From a virus (taxonomy: Duplodnaviria > Caudoviricetes): 64,000 nucleotides of DNA. Made by a program: the position numbers and the translations under genes. Numbering within the stretch: the first letter of the stretch is position 1; each line of letters opens with the position of its first letter. This document shows positions 897 to 63,225 of the stretch, piece by piece. Where the stretch lies: IMG/VR virus record IMGVR_UViG_3300037067_007264, positions 32,001 to 96,000 of that record; one strand, given 5' to 3'. The notes beneath the pieces are model-generated. The model had not been told where the DNA came from, did not search any database, and worked only from the letters and a program-made list of their open reading frames with translations.

Positions 897-1283
897 ATGC
901 CTCGGATTAAAGACCCCTGGAAAGCCCCAAAGGATGATAGTTGGATTGCAGTGGGAAGTAAGATAATCCCACTACCACCATCAAGGATTACCTCACTGTT
1001 CCCTGAAGGTCCTGATTGGGTGTGCAAGAACTTGCCTGAAAACCCCACACCTTATGATATGCCTGTGTTCATAATCACACGAATACAGACAGTAGCTAGT
1101 GGGAACAATTACATTCACTTTGAACGTGAAGGTAACTCTCGGATCACCATCACTCGTTGGGCAAAGGACATCTTAGATAAGTGGAGGCCAGCCCCAAAAC
1201 CACAAGTATTGCGTAGAAAGAAAGAGAAGATTGTTTCAGAGAGACCACCTCCGACGCGGTTTGAGCGGGAAGATGTAATCTAG
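897..1283 (+). CDS. Hypothetical protein, C-terminal tag PTRFEREDVI
   Basis: ORF, upstream GGTGTA, shared C-terminal motif. Confidence 0.85.
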   Translation: MPRIKDPWKAPKDDSWIAVGSKIIPLPPSRITSLFPEGPDWVCKNLPENPTPYDMPVFIITRIQTVASGNNYIHFEREGNSRITITRWAKDILDKWRPAPKPQVLRRKKEKIVSERPPPTRFEREDVI

Positions 1284-1642
1284 GATGCTAGTGATTGAGC
1301 TACTACAATGCAGCCTTCAACTTGATTTACAGAAGCTTGACAGTTTTCTAACCCGCCGATGAATCCAAAGAGGTTCAAGATCTCGGTGATAGCTGCAGGA
1401 TGAGGGAAGGATCCTTGAGTTGGGACTGACATAGAAATGTGTCGGTAAACTTCACTAGAGACAGGATCCTTCGTCAACGAGAAGACTATCCTGTAGTCCC
1501 CGAGTTGAAGAGTATGTTCTTTCGTATCTCCAGGAATCTTGGCAGCAGATCCTGGACGATAGAGGTTCTCGGGGCGTGATGCAAACTCTACTACTTTGGC
1601 AGCAGTACTCTTAGCGTAGTCATCAATGATCAGGATTCTCAT
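1280..1642 (-). CDS. Hypothetical protein
   Basis: 120-aa ORF; 4-nt convergent stop overlap; ATG abuts the upstream TAA. Confidence 0.75.
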   Translation of the reverse strand: MRILIIDDYAKSTAAKVVEFASRPENLYRPGSAAKIPGDTKEHTLQLGDYRIVFSLTKDPVSSEVYRHISMSVPTQGSFPHPAAITEILNLFGFIGGLENCQASVNQVEGCIVVAQSLAS

Positions 1643-1988
1643 TTAGATTACATCCTCGCGTAGGACACGGTGAAGTCTAGTCTCCTCCTCTGGGTGAAGG
1701 ATTACCCAAACATCTTCAACGAAAAATGTTCGACTTCCCCTTCTTAGACCGTAGGCTTAGCATGTCTTGGTTGACAACATCGGTGAATAACTTGACCCTA
1801 TGAAGGGTAACCAAGCTAGTTGAACACGGGTATCCGAGTATGTCCAGCAAGATTGCATAGTCTTCCTTGTGGATCCCAATTCCCGTAATGTCCTCTGGTT
1901 GGGTCTTCAGTATGGCCAAGATGACCTGCACTAGCCTCCTCCCTTTGCTAATGGTCGGCAAGTCGATAGGCGGAAGGTTAGTCATCAT
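1643..1988 (-). CDS. Hypothetical protein with +1 frameshift (programmed or indel) ending in tag ETRLHRVLREDVI
   Basis: The zero frame stops at TGA 1718-1716 after ATT TTT CGT. The +1 frame continues ...FVEDVWVILHPEEETRLHRVLREDVI to TAA 1645-1643, directly abutting the next ATG. Confidence 0.6.
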
Positions 1989-2733
1989 CCATCAGAATTC
2001 GTTCAAACCGGGTTCTTGGTTCCATTGGGATCTCAGAAGGTAGCCAATGTTTGCAAAAAGTCTCCGCGTCAAGTCTCCTGGGAGGTCCGTAATCTCTCCA
2101 GACCTGGTACTCTACCATAGCTGGATTGTAGGGAGTCCTCTCTATATTCCTTGGCTCGGTGGCCACAATGATTGCATAATCATTCCCGTTCTTTACCCAG
2201 GAACCAGTATCAACCCAATCTGGAGGGTTGAAGTCACTTACCGAGTCCTCATCATAGCTGGACAAGGCCCCCGCTGGCAGTTCGTCAACCATAAACACCC
2301 GTCGAGCCATTCCAGAGTAATCAAGACTTCTTCGGAGAGGGGCTAACATCGCCTGTGCAAGTGCCTGTCTTCCAGATGATGATTGGATGTACTCACTGAT
2401 GATGTTAGCCCTAACTTGAGGATCCATAGTAACCCCATTTGAATTAGGGGTTGATCCTAAGAGGTTATCCGAATGGAATGAGTATCTTCGATCAGTGGGT
2501 TGACCCCTCTGTATAGATTGCTGACGATTGTATAGCTCATGGAGGCTACCATCAAAGGTTGACTCCGCATCATCAACAAGCTGAACATCTAAGACGAAAG
2601 AACCATCATAGTAGTGTGTATAAGCTGTGAGCACGTTCCGGTCTTGGGCAAACCGGTGCCGATCAGCCCGAGCTTGAATCCGATGATCTAGTCCATCTCT
2701 ATACTGAAGACGCCAAAAGGCTCCGGCTGGCAT
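1978..2733 (-). CDS. Hypothetical protein with capsid-N-terminus-like segment and C-terminal tag TRFERILMDDD
   Basis: Segment IISEYIQSSSGRQALAQAMLAPLRRSLDYSGMARRVFMVDELPAGALSSYD; N-terminus resembles ORF 3..863. Confidence 0.8.
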   Translation of the reverse strand: MPAGAFWRLQYRDGLDHRIQARADRHRFAQDRNVLTAYTHYYDGSFVLDVQLVDDAESTFDGSLHELYNRQQSIQRGQPTDRRYSFHSDNLLGSTPNSNGVTMDPQVRANIISEYIQSSSGRQALAQAMLAPLRRSLDYSGMARRVFMVDELPAGALSSYDEDSVSDFNPPDWVDTGSWVKNGNDYAIIVATEPRNIERTPYNPAMVEYQVWRDYGPPRRLDAETFCKHWLPSEIPMEPRTRFERILMDDD

Positions 2734-2735
2734 TA

Positions 2736-3203
2736 CTACTGTCTCTTGAACCTAGGGTGGTACTCACCATCAGGCCAGAGTACTAACTCGGCCCACTCTC
2801 GTAGAGGACGAACAAAGGTTCCTTCAGTGCTCTCATACACCACAGCCTTCTCTTCTTTAGGGCCCTGTAGAAGAAGCGCTACTGAATATACAGTGTAGAG
2901 AGATCCCTTAAAGTGTTGGTAAGAGCCAGGAGAGGGTTTCCACCCTTCTTCAGCTTCCCCTCTCCAAATACATCGTAGTAGCTTTTCAGCCCTCTCTGTA
3001 TCCTCATCAGTAACTTGTATATGAGGTTCAACATCTGTGTAGAAGTTCAAAAACTTCGTTAGCAGAGGAGGATCAGAACCACATACCTGCTTGGCTCTCT
3101 TCTCAGCTTCAAGGATAGAAGACTCAGGGATCACTCCCGGTTGTTTACGAAGAGCGTAAGCAGCTAGTGTACGGTAAGGGTTGCTTATGCTAGGGGTAGC
3201 CAT
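2736..3203 (-). CDS. DUF1653-domain protein
   Basis: C-terminal GSYQHFKGSLYTV...VVYES...FVRP...PRF pattern typical of DUF1653. Confidence 0.75.
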   Translation of the reverse strand: MATPSISNPYRTLAAYALRKQPGVIPESSILEAEKRAKQVCGSDPPLLTKFLNFYTDVEPHIQVTDEDTERAEKLLRCIWRGEAEEGWKPSPGSYQHFKGSLYTVYSVALLLQGPKEEKAVVYESTEGTFVRPLREWAELVLWPDGEYHPRFKRQ

Positions 3204-3257
3204 TCCCCCCTAACTACACCGATGCCTACCCCTTATAGATTCGAGTGTGTAGTGCTT

Positions 3258-3427: not shown

Positions 3428-3943
3428 ATGGATTCAATACTGTTTTACTCCCCCAAGGAAACCCCATACGGGTGCTTCTCAAACTTTTCCAGGCATACTC
3501 TTGAGTTCGAGGATCGAACTTGGAGAACCTCTGAAGCTCCATTCCAAGCAATGAAGTTCTTTCCGCATAGAATGGACCTCGTTGATCAGATCCATAGGGC
3601 ACTAACCCCTACGGAAACAGCTATCATTGGTCGAGATCGGTCTAACCCACTGCGAGAAGATTGGGACAACCTACTTACAGAGGTACCCCTAGATGACAAT
3701 CTTGTGGACGATGGTCGTGGTCCCTCCAAGGTCCTTGAACGTGTCAAAGACTTGGTGATGTATCGCGTCGTGTTAGCCAAGTTTAGTCAAAATAAGGAGT
3801 GCCAAAGAATCCTTTTGAGCACTGGAGATCGCCCCATCATCGAGGATGCTATTCATGATCCTTACTGGGGTTGGGGTAGCTCTAAGACTGGAGTCAACCG
3901 ACTTGGAAAGATTCACATGGTTGTTCGTAGGGTTCTTAAATAA
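3428..3943 (+). CDS. NADAR family protein (YbiA-like)
   Basis: FSNF, W-x-TSE-x-x-FQAMKF, LREDW, KFSQN, LLSTGD, E-x4-D-x-YWG, G-x-N-x-LGK motifs. Confidence 0.92.
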   Translation: MDSILFYSPKETPYGCFSNFSRHTLEFEDRTWRTSEAPFQAMKFFPHRMDLVDQIHRALTPTETAIIGRDRSNPLREDWDNLLTEVPLDDNLVDDGRGPSKVLERVKDLVMYRVVLAKFSQNKECQRILLSTGDRPIIEDAIHDPYWGWGSSKTGVNRLGKIHMVVRRVLK

Positions 3944-4331
3944 CGTCAGGCCTTTCGAATCTGGTTGGGGCAGCTACCTCCACTAAGAACCCCTCTTGTT
4001 CAAAAGCCCACTTGAGCATGGTATAGGCTTCTTTGAGACCCGATCCCGTCATGGTCACTACTTGGGACCCGTTCTTGGCTCGAACCTCTTTCTGGGGTAC
4101 CAAGTAGACCTTGTTGACAAACCGCTTCCAACTTGTAGGAACTGGAACCTTGAACTCCCCAGTCGATTGTTCACCATATTCGGACGCAAATAAGAATAGA
4201 CAAGGGGCTGAATCACCCGTAATTATTATAGTTTCTCCAACGAGGTCCCTTCCAATTCGCACTAACTCCCCTTCGGCCAGACTCTTAGTCGGCTTTGGGC
4301 GATTCTGGGAATTGAAAAGAGGTGAAGCCAC
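3936..4331 (-). CDS. Hypothetical protein, C-terminal tag PTRFERPDVI
   Basis: ORF, upstream GGTGTA, shared motif. Confidence 0.85.
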   Translation of the reverse strand: MASPLFNSQNRPKPTKSLAEGELVRIGRDLVGETIIITGDSAPCLFLFASEYGEQSTGEFKVPVPTSWKRFVNKVYLVPQKEVRAKNGSQVVTMTGSGLKEAYTMLKWAFEQEGFLVEVAAPTRFERPDVI

Positions 4332-7889: not shown

Positions 7890-7934
7890 AATCTAGTTAC
7901 ACCACTATCCAAGTTGGTGTATAGTATCTGTGCA

Positions 7935-8240
7935 ATGAGTCACGTCTGGACATGGGTTCATGCCAACCCAGGATTTACTACCATCCTGCTACTCTCGGCT
8001 CTTATAGCTACATACATTTTGATATCCACTATCTCTAATCACATTCTTCTTGGGTGGAAAGCATTTTTCGCAAACTCTGCTCCACAAGAACCTGATGACG
8101 ATGATTCGGATGATGAGGGTTCTGATGACGAGAGGATACCTTCAGAGGAAACCCGTTCAGTTGACCTAGTTAGATCACCTCAATCTTCTACCGATACAGG
8201 CAAACACCCAACTCGGTTTGACAGGATCAATAACTCCTGA
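7935..8240 (+). CDS. Membrane protein, C-terminal tag PTRFDRINNS
   Basis: One hydrophobic helix, acidic linker, tag; GGTGTA upstream. Confidence 0.8.
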   Translation: MSHVWTWVHANPGFTTILLLSALIATYILISTISNHILLGWKAFFANSAPQEPDDDDSDDEGSDDERIPSEETRSVDLVRSPQSSTDTGKHPTRFDRINNS

Positions 8241-12113: not shown

Positions 12114-12644
12114 ATGCCATACGGTGATCTCAATCAAGACCAAGAATTACTAGTCAAGAGATTTGTCCAAGGTCAAGTGGTCCATGACCTTGGAGCTGGT
12201 GACCTCTATCTGTCCTGTGAGCTCCTACGACTGGGAGCCTCGAAGGTCATCGCTATCGATAAGAATCCAATCCAATTCAAAGATATACCAGCAGAGATTG
12301 AGTACCGTCTGACAACCTTCCAAAGTGTCCTGGATGATCCAATCCAGGTGGCTTTTCTCAGCTGGCCCCCCAACTTCGATACAGGGCTTGGTTCGATTCT
12401 AAGAAGATCCAAAGTAATCCTTTACTTGGGAAAGAACACGGATGGAACCGCGTGTGGAACTCCAGGGATGTTCCAGTATCTCCTAAGAAGGAAAGCAGAG
12501 TATCTTCCAGATCGTCACAACACTCTCATCTGCTACACGGACTTCATGAAGGTAGAGAGAGAGCCACTTCCAGAAGAAGAGGCTTGCTTGATGTCATACA
12601 CAGACCTAAGGTACCGTCTTTATGACCAAGTTGAACTAGCCTAG
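12114..12644 (+). CDS. Putative class I SAM-dependent methyltransferase
   Basis: VHDLGAGD motif I, GA-x-x-VIAID, FLSWP. Confidence 0.7.
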   Translation: MPYGDLNQDQELLVKRFVQGQVVHDLGAGDLYLSCELLRLGASKVIAIDKNPIQFKDIPAEIEYRLTTFQSVLDDPIQVAFLSWPPNFDTGLGSILRRSKVILYLGKNTDGTACGTPGMFQYLLRRKAEYLPDRHNTLICYTDFMKVEREPLPEEEACLMSYTDLRYRLYDQVELA

Positions 12645-12862
12645 AGCACTGGTTCTCGTTCGAACCGAGTCGGTGGTTTGATAACCATATCGGCATTAGA
12701 TATTTTACCTGAAGCCCCCGGATAATCCATCAAGGCATAGAGGTAAGCACCCAATTGCTTCCACTCATTCTTGTTGTAAGTTTCAGTACCTACGGCCTTT
12801 GTCCACAGGATGTGGAATAGTTGGTGAACGTTTCTTTGATTGGTGTCCATGTAGGTTCTCAT
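12641..12862 (-). CDS. Hypothetical protein, C-terminal tag PTRFEREPVL
   Basis: ORF and shared motif. Confidence 0.8.
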   Translation of the reverse strand: MRTYMDTNQRNVHQLFHILWTKAVGTETYNKNEWKQLGAYLYALMDYPGASGKISNADMVIKPPTRFEREPVL

Positions 12863-12945
12863 ACTACTGTTGACTACAGTAGTCAAGTAGTCTGTGTCTC
12901 TTTCAGAGATCCCAACGGACTAATGCTAAGCAAATTAATGACCCC

Positions 12946-13422
12946 TCAGGTCTCCTTTGGGGAATGGTCCCCATTCAGCACCCTATCGAATCGAGTGTTG
13001 GGCACTTCGTTTGGGTCGTTGGGGGCAGACTGAAACACGTAGGAGCTTTGAAGATCGGTCTGGGTCACTTCCCAATCGGCAAGCACCCAGACCTCTTCAT
13101 GGATGATTGCCACGAAGAAGATTTGATGGTTCCTCGCTGAGATATAGGCGGTCCCAGTCTTGTAGCTCTCAATGGGAAGATTAACTTCTAACTTGGATTT
13201 GAACCAGAGCAAGGTTTCCTTTGGAGGCCCAAAGAAGCTTGCATCATAGTCCCACTCATTGGCTGGTGGTTCTCCCCGAGCCCACACTTCAACATTTGGG
13301 TACTGCTTTGCTTGATCCTCAGCGTTGAACCCTCGCACCCTAAGCAACGCAAGAGTGTTCCTTCGTACCCACCACTGACCTGATTCCAGCACTGGGGAGA
13401 CATTATCTTGGGTCAAGGGCAT
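12946..13422 (-). CDS. Hypothetical protein (paralog of 13413..13874), tag TRFDRVL
   Basis: Similar GQWW/GQYW...LxRV and DWxxT/S segments. Confidence 0.85.
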   Translation of the reverse strand: MPLTQDNVSPVLESGQWWVRRNTLALLRVRGFNAEDQAKQYPNVEVWARGEPPANEWDYDASFFGPPKETLLWFKSKLEVNLPIESYKTGTAYISARNHQIFFVAIIHEEVWVLADWEVTQTDLQSSYVFQSAPNDPNEVPNTRFDRVLNGDHSPKET

Positions 13423-13874
13423 GGATCACCGTCTAGTACTCTCTCGAACCTAGTTGTAGGCTCGAGGTTTGGATCTATGGGGCCTCGTTGGTACAACTTA
13501 AACTGAGCAAGAACAGCTGGATCTTTTGAGATTACCCAATCGGAATACAAGGTCACAGTAGGACCTCCAACGACCACGAAAGAAAGCTCTCCTCCCTTGA
13601 ATGCGACGATATCCCCGGTTCGCAGAGTACCCCCAATATTAAGAGCATCAGGATCAATGACCATGGAGTAGTCTAATCGGTGACAGCCTCTAAAAGTCTC
13701 ATACCCGAGAAAGTGCCATGATTCACCTGGTTTCCCACCTACAACCCAAGTTTCAAATGTTAGCTGCCACTGGTTAACATCCACAGAGCTAACTCGAAAT
13801 AGGTACAGAGGAAAGGTACTCGCCCAATACTGCCCAACTTCTGCAGTTGGGGTAACATCCTTTACATTGAGCAT
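13413..13874 (-). CDS. Hypothetical protein (paralog of 12946..13422), tag TRFERVL
   Basis: As above. Confidence 0.85.
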   Translation of the reverse strand: MLNVKDVTPTAEVGQYWASTFPLYLFRVSSVDVNQWQLTFETWVVGGKPGESWHFLGYETFRGCHRLDYSMVIDPDALNIGGTLRTGDIVAFKGGELSFVVVGGPTVTLYSDWVISKDPAVLAQFKLYQRGPIDPNLEPTTRFERVLDGDPCP

Positions 13875-15189: not shown

Positions 15190-15747
15190 ATGTCTTTCGA
15201 AAGAATTCAAGAACTTCGTGGTCAAAGAGACCTAAGTACTGAAGAAGAACAAGAACTCGAGCAACTTGTTGCTGAACGGATTTGGGAGTCTGTTAGGAAG
15301 ACTGTCAGGCCAACGTGTTGTGAGGCGGCACAAAAGTATCCTGTCATCACCTTCGATATAGACACTGGGTTTCTCACTAACCCAAAGGATTATGATTCAG
15401 ACAAGGTTGATGGGGATTGGAGGGTGCACTCCTCAAGTGAGCTCCTCAAGTGGTTCATGGATGGGACTCAGAGGTACTATATCAATCGACCCCCAGCGAG
15501 ATTCTGTCCCTACTGCGGAGAACCCCTACCAAAGATGGTTCGAAAGAAGGAACCCCCACCACCGCCTGTTCGTAGGATAATCGGAGATAGTGGTTACTGT
15601 GAGACCTGTAAAGAGAGGCTTCAAGCTTGTATCTGTGATCCTCCCGAAGTGGCGTTTGAACCTCTTATTGAAGAACCATTAAAAACTATCCAAACTGGCC
15701 GTCCACCTTTTGAGGTGCCAGATGAATTTACATCCCAAGGCTCTTAA
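15190..15747 (+). CDS. Hypothetical Cys-rich (Zn ribbon) protein
   Basis: CC, FCPYCG, CxxC-x5-CxC. Confidence 0.8.
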   Translation: MSFERIQELRGQRDLSTEEEQELEQLVAERIWESVRKTVRPTCCEAAQKYPVITFDIDTGFLTNPKDYDSDKVDGDWRVHSSSELLKWFMDGTQRYYINRPPARFCPYCGEPLPKMVRKKEPPPPPVRRIIGDSGYCETCKERLQACICDPPEVAFEPLIEEPLKTIQTGRPPFEVPDEFTSQGS

Positions 15748-16123
15748 GGACTCACCACTTCACGCATCTACTCATCCTGAACAACCAAATCCTACTACTT
15801 TGGATGAAGCTGTTAAAGCTATTGATGGTATGTTGAATGAAGAGACTCGGTTGTTCCTCAGTGTGGCTAATGAAAAGACAGCGGTCACTGAACTCCACCA
15901 CACCCTAGGTAGGTACCTGCGCAACAAGTGGGGTTTGTGGCAAGGATCACCACTTGCCAAGCATATGGAACAGGTTCACGGCGCTTCTCATGTTGACGAC
16001 ATGTCCAGCATGATCATCTCTGCCTATTGCCGACGTGGGATTCAAACTAGATTTCAGCGGGTACTATCAGAGGATTCGATAGTGGAGTGTAATCTGGAAG
16101 AAGCACCCTCAAGCCCAGGCTGA
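15722..16123 (+). CDS. DUF6794-like protein with TRFQRVL tag
   Basis: H-H-x-LG-x-x-LRN-x-WGLW...H-x-DDMS pattern. Confidence 0.7.
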   Translation: MNLHPKALKDSPLHASTHPEQPNPTTLDEAVKAIDGMLNEETRLFLSVANEKTAVTELHHTLGRYLRNKWGLWQGSPLAKHMEQVHGASHVDDMSSMIISAYCRRGIQTRFQRVLSEDSIVECNLEEAPSSPG

Positions 16124-17753: not shown

Positions 17754-18286
17754 CAGTTCCTAAATACGCAGGTGTTACCCGCCCCATCTTTTACTCGTCT
17801 TGCCCACGGAACCTCAAGCATCTCGGGAGAGACCCAAAGGAATGCGCAGAGGTTCATACCCTCGGGAACGGAGATGTTCTCAAGATACAGTTGCCATCGA
17901 GTGTCATCTTTCTCAACTTTGGTTCGTTTGAGTAAATCTGGATGACACCACCAAGCCCAATCTGAGGTTAAACTTGAAGTAATACACTTGGTGATATACT
18001 CACCAAACTCAACTTGAGCTTGTTTAGCATCGGTCTCCGTTTGATAGGTTCCAAGCCGTAGAGTTCTACCCCCGAACTCCAATACCTTCTTTCGAGGGAA
18101 GTGGATTCTCATGATCGTCCGTGGCTCAATCACGTCAGCACTCGGAGCCACACAGGGAGGTGTGGTGGCGGTTGGTATAGCTTTGACAACCGTATGAGTA
18201 CGTCCGTGAAGGTTACGTTGAGAGACAATCAGAACCACTAACGCTAGGACTGCTATCACCAAGAACACCCTATTGGAGGATCTCAT
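17753..18286 (-). CDS. Hypothetical protein with N-terminal signal/TM helix
   Basis: Hydrophobic N-terminus. Confidence 0.75.
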   Translation of the reverse strand: MRSSNRVFLVIAVLALVVLIVSQRNLHGRTHTVVKAIPTATTPPCVAPSADVIEPRTIMRIHFPRKKVLEFGGRTLRLGTYQTETDAKQAQVEFGEYITKCITSSLTSDWAWWCHPDLLKRTKVEKDDTRWQLYLENISVPEGMNLCAFLWVSPEMLEVPWARRVKDGAGNTCVFRN

Positions 18287-19332
18287 ATCACTTCATCTCT
18301 CTCGAACCTAGTCGGGGTTTTTGGCTCTGGGGTCTCGTTCCTAACTCGAACCTCGAAGTCAGCCATAACCTCTGCTTCCTTCATATAGTGCTCGAACCCA
18401 TTAGTCACTGCACTTTCATACGCTTCTTTGGCATAGTCGAACTCACCCGAGTGGATGAGCAGTCTCATCGCAGCCTTGACTCGAGGTCCCCAATGTGGGT
18501 TGTTTCGATTGGGGTCAGGCTTGTGCAATAAGATCCCTACCGAAGTTGGGGAAATGTGCTCATGAACTAGAAGTTCTTGAACAACCTCTTCTTGAGTGTT
18601 GCTCATGATATGGTGTGGTAGCACTCCAACCCTAAGAAGATACTTAGCAGTCTCACCAATATTGCAAGGTATCTCGAGACTCACAAAAGTTCGTATCCTG
18701 CTGTTTGGATCAATCTGCTTCCAATCAAGCTCTCCAGTACCGATGATATCATTGCGACATAGAGAGCCTACCCAGAGTGTATTGGTATACTTGTGACCAC
18801 AATTAGCAACGAACCAAGAACCAAAAGAGCGACTATCCTTTGGATTTGAAAGGGGTCTTCTCCACGGTTGTTTTCGAACTTCCCAGGGTCCGTTATCTCT
18901 AGCCCTATTCTGATTAGTGAGTATCACGATGTCACCCACCCTAACTCTGACTTCATCAATAATGTGCCAAGTACCCCTAAGAGATTGCTCGTTCTCATCT
19001 GAAACCAAAACCCGCGGGTTTGGCATTGGGTTTGGTTGGATGACAACTCGGAGGGCTAGCGACAAAGTCAAGCACATGGACCCCGCGAGGTTTAGGATCC
19101 CACTGTGATACTTGGGGGAAGGAAAGTTGACACCAAAGGGAATATGAACTGTGTTGATCCAAGGCCTAGTTGCTAGAAATAAGAGGGCAATACCAGCTAT
19201 TGCTAGGGAGAGGCTGGTGATGAGGTTCCTAACTCGGTTTCCCCAGAACATTCGACGAACGCAGAGTAACCAGCAGAAACCCATCCAGAACAGAAAAGAC
19301 AGGACCGCCCAACTGTCAAACAGTGGCTTCAT
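18283..19332 (-). CDS. Membrane protein with tail-fibre/virion-like domain, tag PTRFERDEVI
   Basis: About 3 TM helices; IDEVRVRVGDIVILTNQ...DNGPWEV...WRR segment; tag. Confidence 0.8.
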   Translation of the reverse strand: MKPLFDSWAVLSFLFWMGFCWLLCVRRMFWGNRVRNLITSLSLAIAGIALLFLATRPWINTVHIPFGVNFPSPKYHSGILNLAGSMCLTLSLALRVVIQPNPMPNPRVLVSDENEQSLRGTWHIIDEVRVRVGDIVILTNQNRARDNGPWEVRKQPWRRPLSNPKDSRSFGSWFVANCGHKYTNTLWVGSLCRNDIIGTGELDWKQIDPNSRIRTFVSLEIPCNIGETAKYLLRVGVLPHHIMSNTQEEVVQELLVHEHISPTSVGILLHKPDPNRNNPHWGPRVKAAMRLLIHSGEFDYAKEAYESAVTNGFEHYMKEAEVMADFEVRVRNETPEPKTPTRFERDEVI

Positions 19333-20138
19333 ATTACATCCTCGCGCTCAAACCGAGTTGGAGGTAGCTCCTCTTTTTTCTCAGTAGGTGGCTGTGATTG
19401 TTGAGTAGAACCCCTCTGTGTTTCCGGAGGGTTAGTTGTTACTCTTGGGGTTCTAGACCTCGTGGTAACTTCAGTGGTAGTTATATCTAACGTTAGCTCA
19501 CCAGACTCAATCATTCGCATGAACTCTTGGACTAATCGCCCCCAGTTCATGTGCTCAGCTGCACGATTTGAGGTTTCGAGCTCCTGCAGGGCACGAATCG
19601 TTTGAGGTCTTATACCAGAGACTAAGCTGAGATGCTGAAGATTTGATCTTCGGCTTTGGTCAAGTGCAATCATATCTCCAACGAACCCTAGATCTAAAAG
19701 AGTCTGGGCATCTCTGGCTATGGAAGTAGAGGCACTTGCAAACTGAGAAGCGTGTTCAGCAACACTGTTTACCGCCTGGGACACATCCCTGAAAGCTTGA
19801 GTCATCTGGTCTCCCAAGCTATCAAACAGATCGGAGAATGAGGACTCGATGTTTTGACGAGCCCTTGGTCTCTGTCGAGTTTGGAGTCTCCCACTAGAAG
19901 TCCTGTTGGGTGGAGGTTCCGGTGGTAAGGGTCTTATCTCAGATCTATCCACTCCACTACCGGGTATTGGTGGTTGTCCAGAAGCCACTCGAGCAGCATC
20001 CCCAGCAGCTCGTAGAGCACTCAGCCTTTGTCTCTCAATCTCATCCTTAGCTTTACTGTACTTATCCAGGAGATGGACAACGGCGGCTATACCGATGACT
20101 AACATCAGTACAACCGCCACTATTCCGAGGATTATCAT
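19329..20138 (-). CDS. Membrane-anchored protein, tag PTRFEREDVI
   Basis: N-terminal TM helix, disordered linkers, tag. Confidence 0.85.
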   Translation of the reverse strand: MIILGIVAVVLMLVIGIAAVVHLLDKYSKAKDEIERQRLSALRAAGDAARVASGQPPIPGSGVDRSEIRPLPPEPPPNRTSSGRLQTRQRPRARQNIESSFSDLFDSLGDQMTQAFRDVSQAVNSVAEHASQFASASTSIARDAQTLLDLGFVGDMIALDQSRRSNLQHLSLVSGIRPQTIRALQELETSNRAAEHMNWGRLVQEFMRMIESGELTLDITTTEVTTRSRTPRVTTNPPETQRGSTQQSQPPTEKKEELPPTRFEREDVI

Positions 20139-24275: not shown

Positions 24276-24500
24276 ATGTCCGCTTGCGTTCAAGTATCTA
24301 CCCTCAACACTCTGGTAGTCGTCGAAGATCCAGATCCGGCCCCCAAGGCCATTTTTGCTGTCACCAAAGATCGCGAGGGGAAGACAACCATCAGCCAGTA
24401 TGTTAGGATCAGCTGTCTTCCAGAGAAATTGCGAGAATCTGTCAGGAATTCAATATGGGATGGAGTATTACAAGAAAGATGTGGTGTGCCTTTGGGGTGA
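24276..24500 (+). CDS. Hypothetical protein
   Basis: GGTGTA and SD AGGAGG upstream. Confidence 0.65.
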   Translation: MSACVQVSTLNTLVVVEDPDPAPKAIFAVTKDREGKTTISQYVRISCLPEKLRESVRNSIWDGVLQERCGVPLG

Positions 24501-25453
24501 GTCTCATCATCATCTTGGCTGTTAGGTTGTTGATGGGTCACCCTCTACCAAGTTTGGTTTGTCTTCCGAGCCTGACTCTTGGAGGACTCCTTGTAGTATT
24601 CTATGCTCATACCATCTCTAGAAGAGGTTGGGGTTGGATCCTGTTCGCTGGAGTGATGAGCGCTGACTTATACCTATGGAAGTGGGTACGAATTCCAATA
24701 AAGGGTGAGTTAGCACTAGATTACTTAGGGAGCATCTTTCTTACTGGATCTTTACTGGCATACCTGGCGATAGCAAAGGAGGTTTCCTTCAAGAAAATCT
24801 TCTTCGGGTCTCTAGTTGCTGCCGATCTATACTCCATGGTTCATATAGTTTATGGTCCTAAAGGTAACCAAAGGATGGTCTTATCCTTTGGAGTTCTCTT
24901 ACTATTCCTCAGCAGCATTCCTTTTCTATACAACTTAGTTAGCATCAAGAGTGAGACTGAAGGTCCTCGCCTCAACTTCTTCACCAAGATTGGGTTAGGT
25001 ATCTTCAAGGTGATAGCTGGTACTCGATCCAGGTTATTTTGGTTGATGTCAACCCTATACTTTGCTGGGGTCATGGTTATAATCCAACCTGGTCACAAGC
25101 CTCCTTGGGCTTGGTGGGTTGGTGGGGTTACAACCTTCATGTACATAGTCTTCAACCTAGTGACCATGCGTCGGAATGATAAGGAGATTGGAGCTAATTT
25201 CTCGAGGCCTTCTCAGAGACAAGAGATGCCCCTGCCACCACTTCGACAGGATCCACATCCGGGTGGGGCTGATCGGGTAGCCTTTATGCAACCAGAGGTG
25301 AGGAACCGGACAATTGGGATTTACGTTGACGGGGTGAGGGTAGGAATGGCCCAACTTAGCCCAGAGCACCCAGACCCGATAGCGGATGTGCTTCCAGAAC
25401 TTGAACCCGATACTAGGCTTGCTCGAGTGCTGAGGGACAACTACCCGTTGTGA
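24455..25453 (+). CDS. Polytopic membrane protein, tag TRLARVLRDNYPL
   Basis: About 8 hydrophobic helices and a cytoplasmic tail. Confidence 0.85.
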   Translation: MGWSITRKMWCAFGVSLIIILAVRLLMGHPLPSLVCLPSLTLGGLLVVFYAHTISRRGWGWILFAGVMSADLYLWKWVRIPIKGELALDYLGSIFLTGSLLAYLAIAKEVSFKKIFFGSLVAADLYSMVHIVYGPKGNQRMVLSFGVLLLFLSSIPFLYNLVSIKSETEGPRLNFFTKIGLGIFKVIAGTRSRLFWLMSTLYFAGVMVIIQPGHKPPWAWWVGGVTTFMYIVFNLVTMRRNDKEIGANFSRPSQRQEMPLPPLRQDPHPGGADRVAFMQPEVRNRTIGIYVDGVRVGMAQLSPEHPDPIADVLPELEPDTRLARVLRDNYPL

Positions 25454-41168: not shown

Positions 41169-41170
41169 TT

Positions 41171-41773
41171 ATGCTTCCAACATCAGTCACCATTGGGCTA
41201 CTTCTGTTAGTTACTTTTACTCTTGGCTACTTGATTGGCCATAAGAAGGGGTTGCGCGAAGGAATCAAACTTAGAGAGGCTTTCAATAAGCCCCCTCCGC
41301 CCCCACCAAAGGAGGATACAGCTACCGCTTCTTCGGTTCCCTCTCTTGAGGTATCAGACCCAGATCGAATATTCGTTGACAAGTATAGTGTTTACAGAGG
41401 GGGAGTGATCTTCCGAGGGGGTCTGGAAATAGCTATCATTGATGAATCATCCCCCTTTGAGTTTGATAAGCTTCATGGTGTGCAGGAACTAAGTAGTGAC
41501 TTTGAACACTGTCGTAGGTTGAGTCGGCTATGGTTCGAAAAGTTTGGGGTTGATGCTGGGGTAGCTCTCTGTAATAGAGCGTACTTTGTCTCAAAGTCCG
41601 GTTTATTCTGGAAAGGTGACTTCATTCTCGGCAGGTTGGGTTCTCAATTTGAATTCGAAAAACTTAGTGGAAGCCCTGAGTTTTATCTGAAACCAGGACC
41701 GGAAGACGTAGAGATCTGTGAGAAGTTGTCCCTAGCCTGGAAGGCAGAATTCTTACCACCAACTGCTGCTTAG
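41171..41773 (+). CDS. Membrane-anchored protein with an internal two-fold repeat
   Basis: TM helix; FEFDKLHG...C-x-x-LS-x-x-W repeated as FEFEKLSG...CEKLS-x-x-W. Confidence 0.8.
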   Translation: MLPTSVTIGLLLLVTFTLGYLIGHKKGLREGIKLREAFNKPPPPPPKEDTATASSVPSLEVSDPDRIFVDKYSVYRGGVIFRGGLEIAIIDESSPFEFDKLHGVQELSSDFEHCRRLSRLWFEKFGVDAGVALCNRAYFVSKSGLFWKGDFILGRLGSQFEFEKLSGSPEFYLKPGPEDVEICEKLSLAWKAEFLPPTAA

Positions 41774-42192
41774 ATCACATCTTCTCTTTCGAACCTTGTC
41801 GGATGGGGCTCCTTGAACCACCACGCGGGATTTACACTCTTCTCTGGTTGATGCTCAACTAGAGCAGCAGCGATCTGGGTCTCCATATAGAACATCACCA
41901 CCTTGGACGGCCAAGCTGGCATTGGTTCAATAGCTCTGAGAATGTGCTCGTTACGAAGTCCAAAGTCAGTCAGTAACCTAGCCGTAGTGGGAACCACTTC
42001 AAGCCAGAATTGACTCTTACCCTCGACTTCACGACATAGAAACATGGTGTGCCATCTTCTACCGTCGTAGACATCATCTTGATGTTCTACCCAGACTCTT
42101 CTGTCCCAATCGAATAGATGCTTAGGCTTCAACGCCATGAGATCTCTTGATTGGAGCCTAGTGACTGGCATCCAGATGATATCAGATGACAT
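41770..42192 (-). CDS. Hypothetical protein, tag PTRFEREDVI
   Basis: GGTGTA upstream; tag. Confidence 0.85.
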   Translation of the reverse strand: MSSDIIWMPVTRLQSRDLMALKPKHLFDWDRRVWVEHQDDVYDGRRWHTMFLCREVEGKSQFWLEVVPTTARLLTDFGLRNEHILRAIEPMPAWPSKVVMFYMETQIAAALVEHQPEKSVNPAWWFKEPHPTRFEREDVI

Positions 42193-42235
42193 GGCTTCCA
42201 ATACACCGAGTCACGGGGTATACTAGCTTGAGCAG

Positions 42236-44411: not shown

Positions 44412-44441
44412 AGTCGCTATGCTGGTGTACTGACTTGGACG

Positions 44442-45266: not shown

Positions 45267-45307
45267 TAAACTTGACTCTTGCTAGGTAACATGCCTAAAA
45301 GGCAAAC

Positions 45308-45838
45308 ATGTCTAGCAGACTGAGAGCTCTTGAATCCGATATCACTACACTCAACGTTGATGTAATTGTCAATGCTGCCAACGAAGTTATGCTTGGAGGC
45401 GGCGGGGTAGACCACGCAATCCATGCTGTAGCAGGGCCAGGGCTTCTGGAAGCCTGTAAGAGGGTCGTTGAGGTAAGTCCTGGAGTCAGGTGCCCAACTG
45501 GGGAAGCTCGCATCACACCGGCCTTTAGCCTGCCTTGCAGGTATGTTATTCACACGGTTGGACCCATCTGGAAAGGTGGGTTCAACAAAGAGGCTGAGCT
45601 TCTCACTTCTTGCTACCGAGAGAGCTTGAAGCTCGCAGCTCAATTCGGAACCTCGGTTGCCTTTCCAAGCATCAGCGCCGGGGCCTATGGTTACCCAACG
45701 GATAAGGCTTGTGAGATAGCTGTACGAGAATGCAAAGCATTCCTGAAAACTGACAGAACTCTCAATGATGTGATTCTAGTTTCATACGAGTCACCGATGA
45801 TCTTCGATATCCTCACGAAGATGATCCAATACCTCTAG
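45308..45838 (+). CDS. Macrodomain ADP-ribose hydrolase (MacroD/YmdB-like)
   Basis: DIT, IVNAAN-x-x-x-LGGGGVD-x-AIH, HTVGP, AFPSISAGAYGYP. Confidence 0.95.
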   Translation: MSSRLRALESDITTLNVDVIVNAANEVMLGGGGVDHAIHAVAGPGLLEACKRVVEVSPGVRCPTGEARITPAFSLPCRYVIHTVGPIWKGGFNKEAELLTSCYRESLKLAAQFGTSVAFPSISAGAYGYPTDKACEIAVRECKAFLKTDRTLNDVILVSYESPMIFDILTKMIQYL

Positions 45839-46260
45839 ATTACATCCTCACGCTCGAACCGAGTCGGTGGTAGGGGTGCATCAGGTTCCTTGTGTACACC
45901 TAAGGATTCGGCACGAAGTCTCTTCACAACTTCCTGATCGACAGTTATCCCATTTAGGACCATTGTCTCGAGAATCTCTTCCATAGTCTGAGGGTAATCT
46001 GCAATATTACCCTCAGAGCGAGGCCTAGCAAGAACTACTCTGGTAAAAGGGTTGTAAGCTGGTGATCTAAACTCTCCAATGCGATTCTGGAGGAAGACTT
46101 GAAGGTCCTGCATGAGAGAGGAGCAATTAGCATTGTTCCAAGGTCCAGGACCAAACTCACTACAAGGAAACCCCGTTACATGTACCAATTGACTTTGATC
46201 CTCGAGGCCGCCTGATTCAGAATCTGGAATTAGCCTAATCTGAACTTCGAGGTATGGCAT
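45835..46260 (-). CDS. Hypothetical protein, tag PTRFEREDVI
   Basis: Start MPYLE next to the upstream stop; tag. Confidence 0.85.
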   Translation of the reverse strand: MPYLEVQIRLIPDSESGGLEDQSQLVHVTGFPCSEFGPGPWNNANCSSLMQDLQVFLQNRIGEFRSPAYNPFTRVVLARPRSEGNIADYPQTMEEILETMVLNGITVDQEVVKRLRAESLGVHKEPDAPLPPTRFEREDVI

Positions 46261-46261
46261 A

Positions 46262-46753
46262 TCACAGTACCGGATCCCTCTCGAATCGAGTCGGGGGTAA
46301 GTTTTCTGATGGAGTATCTCCTTCCACACATTGTTGAAGGAAGTTACTGGCTTTCGCCACAGAAGCATCGACCCCAGCAAACCACTTTTTGCTATCTATC
46401 CCGTTCGATTTGAACTCATCCCTCATACTACTGATAGCTATAATGAGATCCCCAAGGTGGTTGACTAAACCAGAAATAATGGCGTCATCCTCTGGAAAAG
46501 ACCTCACTGATGACATTCCCAATTGAGATCGTAGCCATTGCTCGTACAGGAAACCTTGCTCGAGAGCCGCCTGACGGAAGTCTAATGAGCAAGCATAGTT
46601 CTGCCCCAGGGTTCGAGGGTTGGCGTAGTAAATAGCATCGAGAGCCTGATTTATGAGGTTGCCGCCAATGTCCACAGAGATATCTTCGGATACCCCAAAT
46701 TCCTTTAGGGTATCCTTCATGTGAACAAGTAGTGTGTCAATTGAGTGAGGCAT
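46262..46753 (-). CDS. Hypothetical protein, tag PTRFERDPVL
   Basis: Tag. Confidence 0.85.
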   Translation of the reverse strand: MPHSIDTLLVHMKDTLKEFGVSEDISVDIGGNLINQALDAIYYANPRTLGQNYACSLDFRQAALEQGFLYEQWLRSQLGMSSVRSFPEDDAIISGLVNHLGDLIIAISSMRDEFKSNGIDSKKWFAGVDASVAKASNFLQQCVEGDTPSENLPPTRFERDPVL

Positions 46754-47115
46754 TACAGAACCGGATTTCTTTCAAATCTAGTTGGTCGTGAGATACTATT
46801 CGGGAGAAAATTCATGGCAGCTTGTTCTACATGAGACCTTTCTATAATGTATTGAGCTAGATGTACATGGGCTTCTTCAACGGATTTTTCTAAGGAGGTT
46901 TCTTTTCCACTAGCTGTGAAGGAACACCCGTAAGTTCCGCAATACCACTCATAGGGTTTCGGATTGTCAATGTCAGCCAGATCCCTGAAGATAGACATGT
47001 TGTATCCTCCACGGGTCGTGTACCAATAGATCCCTGGTCGTGATGGTTCGTTGGGTCTTCGAGACACCCTGATCCCCAAGAGAATCAACTCAAGATCCTT
47101 TTCCTCAGTTGGCAT
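46753..47115 (-). CDS. Hypothetical protein, tag PTRFERNPVL
   Basis: GGTGTA upstream; tag. Confidence 0.85.
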   Translation of the reverse strand: MPTEEKDLELILLGIRVSRRPNEPSRPGIYWYTTRGGYNMSIFRDLADIDNPKPYEWYCGTYGCSFTASGKETSLEKSVEEAHVHLAQYIIERSHVEQAAMNFLPNSISRPTRFERNPVL

Positions 47116-47203
47116 AGGCTCCAGTTACACCAAAATAGCTTGTAAAGTCAACTCTTCGGTGTACTATGCGACAGGCCAACCCTAAGCCGGCCAAGTGTAA
47201 GGC

Positions 47204-49395: not shown

Positions 49396-49436
49396 CATAG
49401 AATCATATTGGGAGGTAGTTCGTCCTCACTTGATAG
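49219..49436 (+). repeat. 31-nt exact direct repeat (49219-49249 and 49406-49436)
   Basis: tattgggaggtagttcgtcctcacttgatag in two adjacent genes, encoding YWEVVRPHLI. Confidence 0.9.
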
Positions 49437-50187: not shown

Positions 50188-50637
50188 ATGCCAACAATCG
50201 AAGTCGGTGAGTTTGATAAGGTATTCGTGGTAAGGCGCACGGAAACTCAGTTACCAAAGGGTTTTCAACAGGTAGTTGAGGTATCTGAGGATGACTTGTT
50301 AGTTTTTGTTCAACAAGGACACCTGATGACTGATACCCCAATAGGTAAACCTGCTCGGGGTGCACCCAAGGCTCGAGTATTCATCGGGGGTGACCAGATT
50401 GGTGTCCTGAACAAGGTTCGAGTGGAAGCCGATAGTGATAACCCACTTCCAATAATGGAGTTCTCCATTATCAGCCCTTTGGTTGAAGGACTCACAGAGA
50501 GCACTAGAAATTCTGTTCAAAAGAGTCTCGACAATTTGAAGAAGTTGTTACCGTTGGCAACTATCCATGAGATGGGTTTCAAGGGCGTTGAGCTCGCCAC
50601 CCACGGAAGGGACTTGACCCTTGAGTCTGTACCCTGA
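50188..50637 (+). CDS. Hypothetical protein
   Basis: GGTGTA 10 nt upstream. Confidence 0.8.
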   Translation: MPTIEVGEFDKVFVVRRTETQLPKGFQQVVEVSEDDLLVFVQQGHLMTDTPIGKPARGAPKARVFIGGDQIGVLNKVRVEADSDNPLPIMEFSIISPLVEGLTESTRNSVQKSLDNLKKLLPLATIHEMGFKGVELATHGRDLTLESVP

Positions 50638-51103
50638 GGATAAGTCTGAGCCTTTCATCTCGGTGAGAGGTTTGGTCTACAAGGGCAAGGGAGAACTGCC
50701 TCCTGAGAAGGCTCTTGTTGTGATCGTATTTGGGAAGCCCAAGGTCTTGATGTATATCGGGCCTGGACTCGACTTCATTTATGAAGATGGTTACATGCAG
50801 AACCACTTCGAAGAAGATGTGGAGATTCATATCCCATCTGACGGTCTCTATATCTGGACTGGGCAGGTGGTGGAGCGTACCAGCTTCGCAGAAGACGAGG
50901 TAGAGTATTGGATTGAGGGGTCCTTCGAGCCAGCCTCAAGATCGCAGTGGGACAAGTATCTGGAAGGTACTCCACCTTGGGATACTAGCTTGTACTTAGT
51001 TGATTCACGCATTAGGGATCTACTTCTCGAGGAGTGCGAGGAGGATCACACTAAGGCCAAGCACTGGCCTCCAGATAGGTTCCACCGAGAAGAAGTGATC
51101 TGA
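50621..51103 (+). CDS. Hypothetical protein, variant tag PDRFHREEVI
   Basis: Tag variant. Confidence 0.8.
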   Translation: MSLYPEDKSEPFISVRGLVYKGKGELPPEKALVVIVFGKPKVLMYIGPGLDFIYEDGYMQNHFEEDVEIHIPSDGLYIWTGQVVERTSFAEDEVEYWIEGSFEPASRSQWDKYLEGTPPWDTSLYLVDSRIRDLLLEECEEDHTKAKHWPPDRFHREEVI

Positions 51104-61509: not shown

Positions 61510-62043
61510 TCAGTCTTTACTTTTGCGCGTAGTGCCACGTTTTTGGGCTTTCTTCTCGAACAACTTTGGAAAGTTCTGCTGAATTAGGTTAGCATCCCGT
61601 TCGAGATCTTCAAGGTTAGCAGAACTCCTCAGGAACGGGATGATCCCAGTATTGTCACTACTGAGGAAGTCGAACACGAAACACCCTGAGAACTCCCCGT
61701 TGTGTTGATCTCGATGTAGTCGAAGGACTGGGATTTCGTGAAGCTTTCCCTTAGAAGCTACAATCGAGAGGGTCCGTCCATCTTTTGAGATGAGAGGTTT
61801 GACCCCACGTGTGACAAGCTCACCTACAAGCTTCCCAAGGTAGACTCGAATCTTGTCTTCCATGCTAGCCACCTTGGATTCAGAGTCCAAAGCCCTTTGA
61901 ATAGCTTCCTCCAAAGATGCCTTGATTCGTTGCTTGTTGGCATCGTACTGAGAGACACCGCACTTGGAGGAGATGAAGGTTTGCATGAACCCGAAGTCCA
62001 TGAGAATTTGAGATGCCTTGGAGGCTACTTGTTTTGAGTTCAT
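61510..62043 (-). CDS. Hypothetical protein
   Basis: CGTAGTA upstream. Confidence 0.8.
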   Translation of the reverse strand: MNSKQVASKASQILMDFGFMQTFISSKCGVSQYDANKQRIKASLEEAIQRALDSESKVASMEDKIRVYLGKLVGELVTRGVKPLISKDGRTLSIVASKGKLHEIPVLRLHRDQHNGEFSGCFVFDFLSSDNTGIIPFLRSSANLEDLERDANLIQQNFPKLFEKKAQKRGTTRKSKD

Positions 62044-62093
62044 TCTGTTTAGTACTACGTTTGAGGGGTTAGGATCTCACAACTTTTTTCAAG

Positions 62094-62300
62094 TTACCCC
62101 TCTTCGGGGGTTTCATAGGTATCCTCGAGTGCACTATCAATAGCTCGCTCCGCTTTCAGACAGGCTTCTTCGGTAGCCTCAAGTTCTTCTTCGGTCACTT
62201 GACCTAAACAAGCCAACTGGAGGGCTCGAGTTCTCTCCCGTCTCCTCTCATCCCATGCGTTACGGGCTAGGACCAATTGATGATAGGCCTCTTGATTCAT
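62094..62300 (-). CDS. Hypothetical helical protein
   Basis: CGTAGTA upstream. Confidence 0.7.
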   Translation of the reverse strand: MNQEAYHQLVLARNAWDERRRERTRALQLACLGQVTEEELEATEEACLKAERAIDSALEDTYETPEEG

Positions 62301-62392
62301 ACCCTATACTACGGATGAGTTCGATGAATCTCACCACATTTCAACAGGCCGACTTTACTTGTGGTAAGAATCTGGTGTAATACCACAGTCTC

Positions 62393-62941
62393 ATGATCAT
62401 TACGCGTAAAGAGGGTCACGAATACTGGGCTACGCCTGACCCTTGGGATCCGGCTCTGTACTCTGACTATGTCATTGTCAGAAACTCGACGTCCTCATTG
62501 TTCCTGGTCGACGGTGGACGTGAACTAGGACCCTCGAATCAATGTGAGGAGTGGCAGTTTACCCTACTTGGGATTACTGGGAGTGAGGTAGAGCCAGAGG
62601 TTGGAGAGCGGTTTGGTTTCACGGTTGTCCAAGAGCGAGTCTATCCCGTCTGTTGCGAGTACGGTCAGAATCTTTACTGGAGATGGCCCTCCCCGAGCAC
62701 CAGGCGGTGTTCAGGAGTTCCAGAGCCCGGATGGTACACTGGCATAGCCTGTACTTCCTACAGTGTCTGGCAGCCAACCAACGGCATCTGTCCAGGTTGT
62801 GGGGAGCCTCTTCCAGAACCTGGGATTGGGGAGCAAGTCCGAGGGCGTCAGCATCTCATCGGTCTCCTGAAGGGACACCTTCAACTGATTCCAAGGTCAA
62901 GCTACCCAACTCGATTTGATCGAATACTCAAACAACCTTAG
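62393..62941 (+). CDS. Hypothetical protein, tag PTRFDRILKQP
   Basis: GGTGTA upstream; CC...CPGCG; tag. Confidence 0.85.
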   Translation: MIITRKEGHEYWATPDPWDPALYSDYVIVRNSTSSLFLVDGGRELGPSNQCEEWQFTLLGITGSEVEPEVGERFGFTVVQERVYPVCCEYGQNLYWRWPSPSTRRCSGVPEPGWYTGIACTSYSVWQPTNGICPGCGEPLPEPGIGEQVRGRQHLIGLLKGHLQLIPRSSYPTRFDRILKQP

Positions 62942-62949
62942 GTACTTAG

Positions 62950-63225
62950 ATGAGAATCCCCATTCATATTGTTGGAATTAATGAGACCAAAAATATGGAA
63001 GTGACCCATACCATTGGGCATGGGGGTGCTGGCCAAGTAGTCTATCATGGATCTCGTTACTGCCTTGACTTAGAGCTTCCTGACGGAACGGTCATCACAA
63101 TCGATGTAGGCCACCAGACTCTAAATCAAATGTGCCAAATCTCAGAAGAATTCCTACTAAGGGAGAAGGCCAAGTTCAATCAACCCCCGCCGACTAGGTT
63201 CGAGCGTATTTTGATTGGTGACTAA
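62950..63225 (+). CDS. Hypothetical protein, tag PTRFERILIGD
   Basis: Tag. Confidence 0.85.
   Translation: MRIPIHIVGINETKNMEVTHTIGHGGAGQVVYHGSRYCLDLELPDGTVITIDVGHQTLNQMCQISEEFLLREKAKFNQPPPTRFERILIGD

Follow-up and report, generated by a model that had tools for sequence, protein, structure and literature searches.

A portable C-terminal peptide on unrelated small proteins of a phage-G-like huge phage, a putative docking tag for a phage AAA+ machine

A short peptide built around the sequence T-R-F-E-R lies at the C-terminus of many otherwise unrelated proteins encoded by a 64,000-nucleotide stretch of Caudoviricetes DNA (hereafter the window), which comprises bases 32001-96000 of a single 145,487-bp contig, IMG/VR record IMGVR_UViG_3300037067_007264. 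This tag is a portable, modular peptide, that is, a short linear motif, joined by a linker rich in Pro and Glu to the C-termini of small, fast-evolving and mutually unrelated accessory proteins. It is carried by about 16% of the open reading frames (ORFs) in the window and by 11-16% of those in the contig. The best lead we now have for its function is putative docking on a phage AAA+ machine. Judged from its sequence, the contig is part of an uncultured phage-G-like huge phage. It is collinear (inverted, at ~80% protein identity) with 110-256 kb of IMGVR_UViG_3300028654_000001 (hereafter G001), a complete genome of 512,571 bp with terminal repeats. The major capsid protein of G001 has 289 residues; it matches phrog_2522 as well as the solved capsid protein of phage G, gp27 (6wkk, E 6e-62). 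A megablast comparison of 20 kb of the window with GenBank phages gave no match.

The original prediction, made from the letters of the window, was of a peptide shared by the C-termini of at least 22 unrelated proteins, and both shuffled sequences and a positional test confirmed an enrichment much too strong to be due to chance. The window, translated in six frames, holds 17 copies of TRF[ED]R, where 100 shuffles gave 0.16 on average and 2 at most. The whole 145-kb contig holds 34 such matches, nearly all of them at most 40 residues from the stop in long ORFs, and with the relaxed pattern [TS]R[FL][ED]R, 28 of 33 matches in called ORFs are no more than 20 residues from the C-terminus (binomial p 4e-19). 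Related phage contigs were scanned as well.

A consensus built from 114 tags in four genomes resolves the core into Pro at position -1 (48 of 59 class A tags), often Arg or Pro at -2, then Thr or Ser, an invariant Arg, Phe, mostly Glu and a second invariant Arg. Two classes are distinguished by what follows. In class A the core continues as [ED]-[DPE]-V-[IVL]-stop, and all 59 tags of this class end in V-[ILV]-COOH. In class B it continues as [IVL]-L and then a variable tail of 3 to ~40 residues (median 5), in which Asp and Glu account for 36% of residues against 12% in the background. The tag stands 4-20 residues from the stop, and Pro and Glu are enriched 2.2-fold and 1.5-fold in the 19 residues before it, which bears out the Pro-rich linker described earlier. 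A further suggestion, that the tag is a ligand for a PDZ-type domain or another reader of the free carboxylate, fits class A but not class B, where the acidic tail follows the motif. Because of these tails, a PDZ-type protein is unlikely as the general reader.

Such a repeated string could also be a DNA repeat, such as a regulatory site or the end of a mobile element, or the conserved end of one paralogous family. The TTCGAA within the codons for R-F-E-R is palindromic, convergent arrangements are frequent among the tagged genes, and tagged proteins do form two paralogous pairs. However, synonymous codons vary freely. Each of the two Arg positions draws on the full set of six Arg codons, with switches between AGR and CGN; TTT and TTC are mixed, as are GAA and GAG, and Thr is written with four codons. 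Patterns read backwards gave no matches, compared with 36 and 61 forwards. The tag is also better conserved between orthologues than the protein sequence that flanks it: identities for tag, 20-residue linker and body are 72.5, 39 and 51.5% against G003 (71 kb), and 87.5, 62.5 and 67% against G001. The codon spread and the conservation among orthologues thus show that selection acts on the peptide, as had been proposed. The codon data rule out the DNA repeat, and this whole alternative, the single family included, is very improbable.

The single-family version also conflicts with the bodies of the proteins, which the original prediction had called mostly unrelated. After removal of the tags, only 2 of 35 bodies paired by blastp, leaving 33 with no relative among the others. 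Scans of 30 tagged proteins from four genomes found no confident Pfam or PHROG family; the sole matches were capsid-protein-like segments in two proteins, a stretch with a weak likeness to virion proteins in one protein, and, below threshold, a RecA/KaiC-like P-loop in one orthologue pair. The tag can be exchanged between copies of one protein, since one paralogue may end in class A and another in class B. It can even change ends: the body of the C-terminally tagged protein encoded at 50621-51103 is 34% identical to a paralogue that bears an N-terminal tag instead. This N-terminal sister tag, [DE]-D-[IL]-E-[ES]-[YF]-W-x-x-h-R-P, is found on 11 other proteins of the contig, within window positions 32035-50055 and contig-wide (for example at 47204, 47688, 49189, 49373, 49687, 32035 and 39250-39867). 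It occurs 11 times in G000, 16 in G001, 10 in G002, 4 in G003 and 3 in G006, and not at all in G007, LR745208.1 or phage G. The two tags never occur on the same protein, and they have the same distribution across genomes.

The contig belongs to a clade, defined by its capsid protein, of at least 591 IMG/VR contigs; among the best 80, capsid protein identity is 91% or more. G001 has about 55 tagged ORFs among 787, all in its accessory arm (from 480 kb across the genome ends to 250 kb) except for two at 287-289 kb; G002, a 228-kb fragment, has 48, and G003 has 16. Counts of TRF[ED]R fall from 61 in G001 to 25 in G016 (435 kb), 14 in G006 (407 kb), 11 in G009, 7 in G014 and 5 in G007, with pattern-count controls of 0-1 for each, and are at background in G011, G012, G018, G019 and G020. 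The capsid proteins of G006 and G007 are 98% and 95% identical to that of G001, and the motif is C-terminal in 10 of 14 cases in G006 (p 2e-8) and in 4 of 8 in G007. In G018 (437 kb), with a capsid protein 93% identical, the tag set is shifted throughout: at least 23 ORFs carry P-T-x-W-[ED]-R-[LI]-L plus an acidic tail, and T-x-W-[ED]-R-[ILFM] is counted 27 times, the control giving 3. In G019, T-L-W-[DE]-R is present at a few sites. LR745208.1, whose capsid protein is 84% identical, has neither tags nor any other enriched terminal k-mer, and Tunturi_5 has no match to the TRFER pattern. Capsid proteins that are 93-98% identical therefore accompany many, few, shifted or no tags.

The change from R-F to x-W has taken place together across unrelated proteins, as expected if one reader co-evolves with the tag. 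A common partner, suggested earlier from the window, is thus likely, now that a relative with a 93% identical capsid protein has been found to have shifted its whole tag set. We accordingly favour, with moderate confidence and leaving the reader unnamed, an address tag in which all copies dock on one reader that co-evolves with them. The tagged proteins would then gather at a single machine, either as its clients or as adaptors that bring other proteins to it. Those in the membrane would probably present the tag in the cytoplasm, and the N-terminal peptide (D-I-E-[ES]-[YF]-W-x-x-h-R-P) would be a second address of the same system.

The best single candidate for this reader, although still a tentative one, is a Cdc48/YjoB-like classic AAA ATPase that would bind the tag through its N-terminal domain. 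It has 406 residues and is encoded at contig positions 28442-29662 (minus strand), 2.3 kb upstream of the window. Its AAA domain scores 48.7 bits against PF00004, the best PDB matches are to Cdc48/p97 (E 2e-16), and the R-x-G-R motif and the arginine fingers of the second region of homology are conserved. In fold it resembles the proteasomal Rpt, FtsH, Bcs1 and spastin ATPases (Z 13-14), and the only full-length structural match is Bacillus subtilis YjoB, a putative substrate-specific chaperone (PMC9565160). The N-domain of ~190 residues is mixed alpha/beta in an AlphaFold model (predicted local distance difference test, pLDDT, ~65-79 for residues 30-165), and the protein ends in a poly-Asp/Glu tail of ~40 residues, a long tail being present in most genomes.

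What recommends this ATPase is its position. It is present in G001, G002, G003, G005, G006, G007 and G018, not in LR745208.1, and it lies amid the most conserved and oldest cluster of tagged genes. On the contig, 4 of its 6 nearest genes are tagged, and the run continues into the window with 897-1283 and 1978-2733. A tagged ORF directly adjoins it in G000, G001, G003, G006, G007 and G018; the background chance of such a neighbour is 0.04, 0.03 and 0.07 in G006, G007 and G018, and in G018 the neighbour is a non-homologous protein with the shifted tag. Three tagged ORFs flank the ATPase gene within 1.5 kb in G016. At loci of ClpX, a second AAA+ candidate considered below, tagged adjacency was seen in only 1 of 13. 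Precedent comes from tethers to the N-domains of AAA+ proteins (the XB tail of SspB on the zinc-binding domain of ClpX, and those of p97 and Vps4), which are likewise short terminal peptides after a flexible linker and portable between unrelated proteins; these phages do encode AAA+ machines with separate N-domains, one of them among tagged genes. The tag sequence is, however, unrelated to LRVVK or MIM, and here there are at least 50 carriers in one genome. For docking of the MIT-MIM type in particular, the AAA domain is of the classic clade and has the arginines, but its N-terminus is the modelled alpha/beta domain rather than a three-helix MIT bundle. A conserved gene for a 99-residue protein lies 3' of the ATPase gene, and a paralogue of it stands at window positions 42236-42547, beside a tagged gene.

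Several observations weigh against this ATPase, or against the proposed common reader as a whole. The adjacency amounts to only about 2-3 independent observations, because G000, G001, G003, G006 and G007 largely share one inherited cluster. G019, for all its few T-L-W-[DE]-R tags, lacks any close homologue of the ATPase, while G011 and G012 carry the ATPase without enrichment of either TRFER or T-x-W-E-R. The ATPase of G002 groups with that of G018, yet the tags of G002 are TRFER. The candidate ATPase has no aromatic residue in the pore loop, and in its Walker B motif E-D takes the place of D-E. Shared occurrence is not specific to it either: 44 genes of G001 are common to G006, G007 and G018 and missing from LR745208.1, all with the same presence/absence pattern. 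Finally, the guanine-plus-cytosine (GC) content of these phages spans 49-58%, so a host reader would explain the concerted shift equally well.

Such a reader would be a hub protein of the host, whether chaperone, protease, polymerase or membrane machine, that binds the tag and differs as the hosts differ. The tag shift does accompany a GC difference (49% in G001, 55% in G018, 58% in G006), and the phage-encoded readers are candidates only. R-F-x-R-I-L also resembles generic chaperone-binding peptides, a weak comparison that we count in favour of a host hub. On the other hand, a scan of 185,579 prokaryote genomes for the class A tag found no host protein with it: the true matches lay only on 413-571-kb or other phage-like contigs in metagenome-assembled genomes (MAGs), and the rest were chance matches in short ORFs. 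Moreover, the most conserved tagged genes adjoin the phage AAA ATPase, which points to a phage partner. We regard a host hub as rather unlikely. The 413-571-kb contigs with genuine tagged genes had been binned into Acidobacteriota and 'delta proteobacterium' MAGs (Microflora Danica), and a 5-kb fragment into an Omnitrophota MAG; these are probably mis-binned phage, or weak hints at hosts.

The second phage-encoded candidate, which we consider unlikely, is ClpX. The tag would then be a degron or a tether, read by the pore or by the zinc-binding N-domain of a phage ClpX that docks on host ClpP through an LGF loop, and the tagged proteins would be degraded on a timer or used as adaptors. The ClpX of G001 has a C4 zinc finger, an intein, AAA_2 and the D2-small domain. 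An intein-free homologue keeps the GYVG loop and the LGF (IGF-type) loop, having lost the RKH loop, and could therefore dock on host ClpP; a search of five genomes (G000, G001, G002, LR745208.1 and Tunturi_5) for ClpP returned none. Every complete genome in the capsid clade (6 of 6) encodes ClpX, the tagless LR745208.1 and Tunturi_5 do not, and in G019 a tagged 71-residue ORF abuts its gene. Class A tags, which end in nonpolar V-[IL]-COOH after basic residues, resemble ClpX degrons of the ssrA type (C-motif 1) and the MuA type (C-motif 2), and the ClpX of the clade has the ClpP-docking loop. Class B, in contrast, buries the motif under variable acidic tails, which argues against recognition of a free C-terminus, and P-T-R-F-E-R is longer and more specific than those degrons.

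Nor does ClpX follow the tag. It is a core gene of the clade whether TRFER tags are many, few, shifted or absent, its zinc-finger region hardly changes between genomes rich and poor in tags, and tagged genes rarely flank it, as noted above. Its presence/absence does not discriminate, since it is clade-wide and 125 genes share its pattern (present in G006, absent from LR745208.1) with that one outgroup, and 44 do so with three ingroups. A complex prediction for two ClpX zinc-binding domains with an alignment of 59 class A tails scored 0.00, and as controls were not run we count it neither way. ClpX is not encoded on this 145-kb fragment. Iyer et al. (2021) saw ClpX and ClpA of some jumbo phages as possible translocases (PMC7824862), and a multi-omics preprint on phage G found ClpP and ClpX in particles and reported no tags (10.1101/2024.12.16.628780).

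The ClpX loci have some further features. At G001:277071-281715 the gene is interrupted by a Hint/LAGLIDADG intein. In 5 of 5 loci retrieved by homology the gene before it carries an invariant HELGH and a later Glu, and the product of that gene looks like a zincin-type peptidase by this motif; a profile search against the PDB found nothing for it, its AlphaFold model is unusable (pLDDT 49.8), and the atlas neighbours of that model (Peptidase_MA_2, ATLF and M90) reach template-modelling scores of only 0.35-0.43. A J-domain protein follows ClpX in G009, and another is encoded on the present contig at 4939-6258 (minus strand).

What is left of our confidence is spread over a capsid or scaffold site, the host hub, and something unseen. 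A capsid-loading signal would bind the interior or the scaffold of the procapsid; the tagged proteins would be packaged there and later injected along with the DNA, on the model of the T4 capsid targeting sequence or encapsulin cargo-loading peptides. A terminal peptide after a flexible linker is the design of the encapsulin cargo-loading peptide, which is C-terminal as the tag is. Two tagged proteins have capsid-protein-like segments: those encoded at 1978-2733 (minus strand) and at contig positions 31838-32863 (minus strand) each match a different portion of the major capsid protein that the phage itself encodes (phrog_2522, E 7e-8 and 4e-12), and they are kept in relatives including G006, G007 and G018. 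Another tagged protein has a weak virion-protein match, and phage G has a cousin motif on four small ORFs that closely follow its capsid gene.

Both T4 and encapsulins place one short terminal peptide on several unrelated proteins of a virus or of an HK97-fold shell. The T4 capsid targeting sequence is an N-terminal leader of ~10 residues that is cleaved by the prohead protease, whereas the tag is C-terminal. Genes for encapsulin cargo adjoin the gene for the HK97-fold shell, and the peptide tracks the shell; the tagged genes occupy the accessory arm, well away from the head module, and capsid proteins 93-98% identical go with 61, 14, 5 or 0 tags or with a shifted tag. Five of the tagged proteins are membrane proteins, and at least 50 cargo species would be unprecedented. 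Because tag content is uncoupled from near-identical capsid proteins, and because of the five membrane members, packaging is weakened, and we hold it to be quite improbable.

Returning to the common reader, a more specific but speculative version is that the dozens of fast-evolving small proteins with TRFER at the C-terminus or IESYW at the N-terminus are exchangeable adaptors, each of which might hand host or rival-phage proteins to a phage AAA+ unfoldase (the Cdc48/YjoB-like ATPase, or ClpX with host ClpP); we find this doubtful. Poxvirus ankyrin/PRANC F-box-like proteins and SOCS/BC-box proteins are families of this kind, in which dozens of variable binders share one C-terminal element that brings them to one degradation or remodelling machine, and such families expand and contract in copy number between relatives, as the tagged set does. 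Their elements are, however, folded domains that act on parts of host ubiquitin ligases, while here a peptide of 9-12 residues occurs in a bacterial virus and the adaptor role is conjecture. If true, bacterial viruses would have their own equivalent of the F-box/PRANC adaptor families, and co-evolution of tag and reader would give every phage lineage a code of its own. Another parallel is the Rubisco-binding motif of the algal pyrenoid and the encapsulation peptides of microcompartments in bacteria, short and often C-terminal motifs on soluble and membrane proteins that lead to one hub or compartment. Microcompartment peptides stand at either terminus, as the two tags do here. We know of no compartment or condensate scaffold in these phages.

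A literature search on TRFER, on phage ClpX and on tags in huge, jumbo or mega-phages returned no published description of the tag or of a comparable tag system in huge phages, in keeping with the earlier remark that it was not recognised as a described system. In principle, portable terminal address peptides are known from several systems; this instance, its scale, the two-ended design and the lineage-specific code appear to be undescribed. Small genes of unknown function number in the hundreds in huge phages; a selected tag on 7-16% of them groups these orphans into one functional system, and the peptide itself can be used as bait, which gives a direct experimental handle. Should the reader be a phage unfoldase, this would be a new viral way to organise takeover or counter-defence proteins, and possibly an orthogonal tag/reader pair for engineering.

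All 12 ORFs that had been assigned to class A (in the window P-[TD]-R-F-[EH]-R-x-x-V-[IL]-stop) and all 9 assigned to class B ([TS]-R-[FL]-x-R-[IV]-[LN] plus a short tail) were found at the positions given, as was a hybrid. The first class A ORF, 897..1283 (+, 128 residues, ending ...PPTRFEREDVI-stop), keeps its tag in the G001, G003 and G005 orthologues and has no Pfam family above cut-off. It is followed by 3936..4331 (-, 131 residues, ...APTRFERPDVI-stop) and 12641..12886 (-, 81 residues, ...PPTRFEREPVL-stop). Two class A proteins are predicted to be in the membrane: 18283..19332 (-, 349 residues, ...TPTRFERDEVI-stop), with three transmembrane segments and a weak match to virion or decoration families, and 19329..20138 (-, 269 residues, ...PPTRFEREDVI-stop), with an N-terminal transmembrane anchor. 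The ORFs 37722..38003 (+, 93 residues, ...PPTRFEREEVI-stop) and 38000..38329 (-, 109 residues, ...APTRFERNPVI-stop) are convergent, with overlapping stop codons. Farther on lie 41770..42201 (-, 143 residues, ...HPTRFEREDVI-stop), 45835..46380 (-, up to 181 residues, ...PPTRFEREDVI-stop), 46262..46753 (-, 163 residues, ...PPTRFERDPVL-stop) and 46753..47115 (-, 120 residues, ...RPTRFERNPVL-stop), and the last of the class, 50621..51103 (+, 160 residues), ends in the variant ...PPDRFHREEVI-stop.

Among the others, 1978..2733 (-, 251 residues, class B, ...PRTRFERILMDDD-stop) is the protein in the window with a capsid-like segment, the match to phrog_2522 covering residues 106-162. The two ORFs 12946..13422 (-, 158 residues, ...NTRFDRVLNGDHSPKET-stop) and 13413..13874 (-, 153 residues, ...TTRFERVLDGDPCP-stop) are class B paralogues, and two more class B ORFs, 62393..62941 (+, 182 residues, ...YPTRFDRILKQP-stop) and 62950..63225 (+, 91 residues, ...PPTRFERILIGD-stop), lie near the end of the window. 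Hydropathy predicts transmembrane segments in 7914..8240 (+, 108 residues, ...HPTRFDRINNS-stop), which has one, in the polytopic 24455..25453 (+, 332 residues, ...DTRLARVLRDNYPL-stop) and in 25450..25875 (+, 141 residues, ...ESRFARILKDNYPL-stop), so that with 18283 and 19329 the five membrane members counted earlier are recovered. In 7914..8240 the sequence PTRFDRINNS is unchanged among orthologues whose identity is 32-52%. The least certain member is 15710..16123 (+, 137 residues, TRFQRVL plus 18 further residues), a doubtful ORF that overlaps others. The hybrid tag, described earlier as a link between the two classes, is indeed present at 1643..1756 (-, ...TRLHRVLREDVI-stop). Its orthologue in the 512-kb relative is a single ORF of 113 residues whose N-terminal part matches window positions 1716-1988, so a frameshift has probably divided one gene here, with 1716-1988 as its 5' piece and the hybrid ORF as its 3' piece. 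The recognisable enzymes lack the tag, as had been noted.

Tagged proteins start with Met-Pro in 14 of 32 cases, compared with 20 of 218 other proteins (p 5e-6), and G001, G002 and G003 show the same trend. Many genes have GGTGTA 10-13 nucleotides before the start codon, without an obvious Shine-Dalgarno sequence. We considered this promoter-like GTGTA motif as the mark of a shared regulatory class and rejected it: its association with tagged genes is weak and inconsistent (tagged against other genes, 31% against 13% in the contig, and 15% against 11% and 6% against 11% in two relatives).

Elsewhere in the window, 26899-28197 (+) encodes a 432-residue TnpB/Cas12f-like protein (OrfB_IS605 plus a Cas12f1-like TNB domain), and 45308-45838 (+) a well-conserved Macro-domain protein (E 5e-42), whose stop codon overlaps that of the convergent tagged gene 45835..46380. 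The contig also encodes a nicotinamide phosphoribosyltransferase, a PurA/PurZ-like adenylosuccinate synthetase, a CCA-adding enzyme and an Acb1/2H-phosphoesterase-like protein. In the cultured Bacillus phage G (JN638751.1), 24 ORFs carry a C-terminal motif, ...[IL]-x-Y-W-K-E-N-D-R-Y-L-A-K-I-L-K..., in two regions (26.1-33.1 kb and 352-371 kb). The carriers are tandem paralogues of ~200 residues (gp444-gp474) and the four small ORFs beside the capsid gene, and the motif bears a loose likeness to the N- and C-terminal tags of the present phage joined together.

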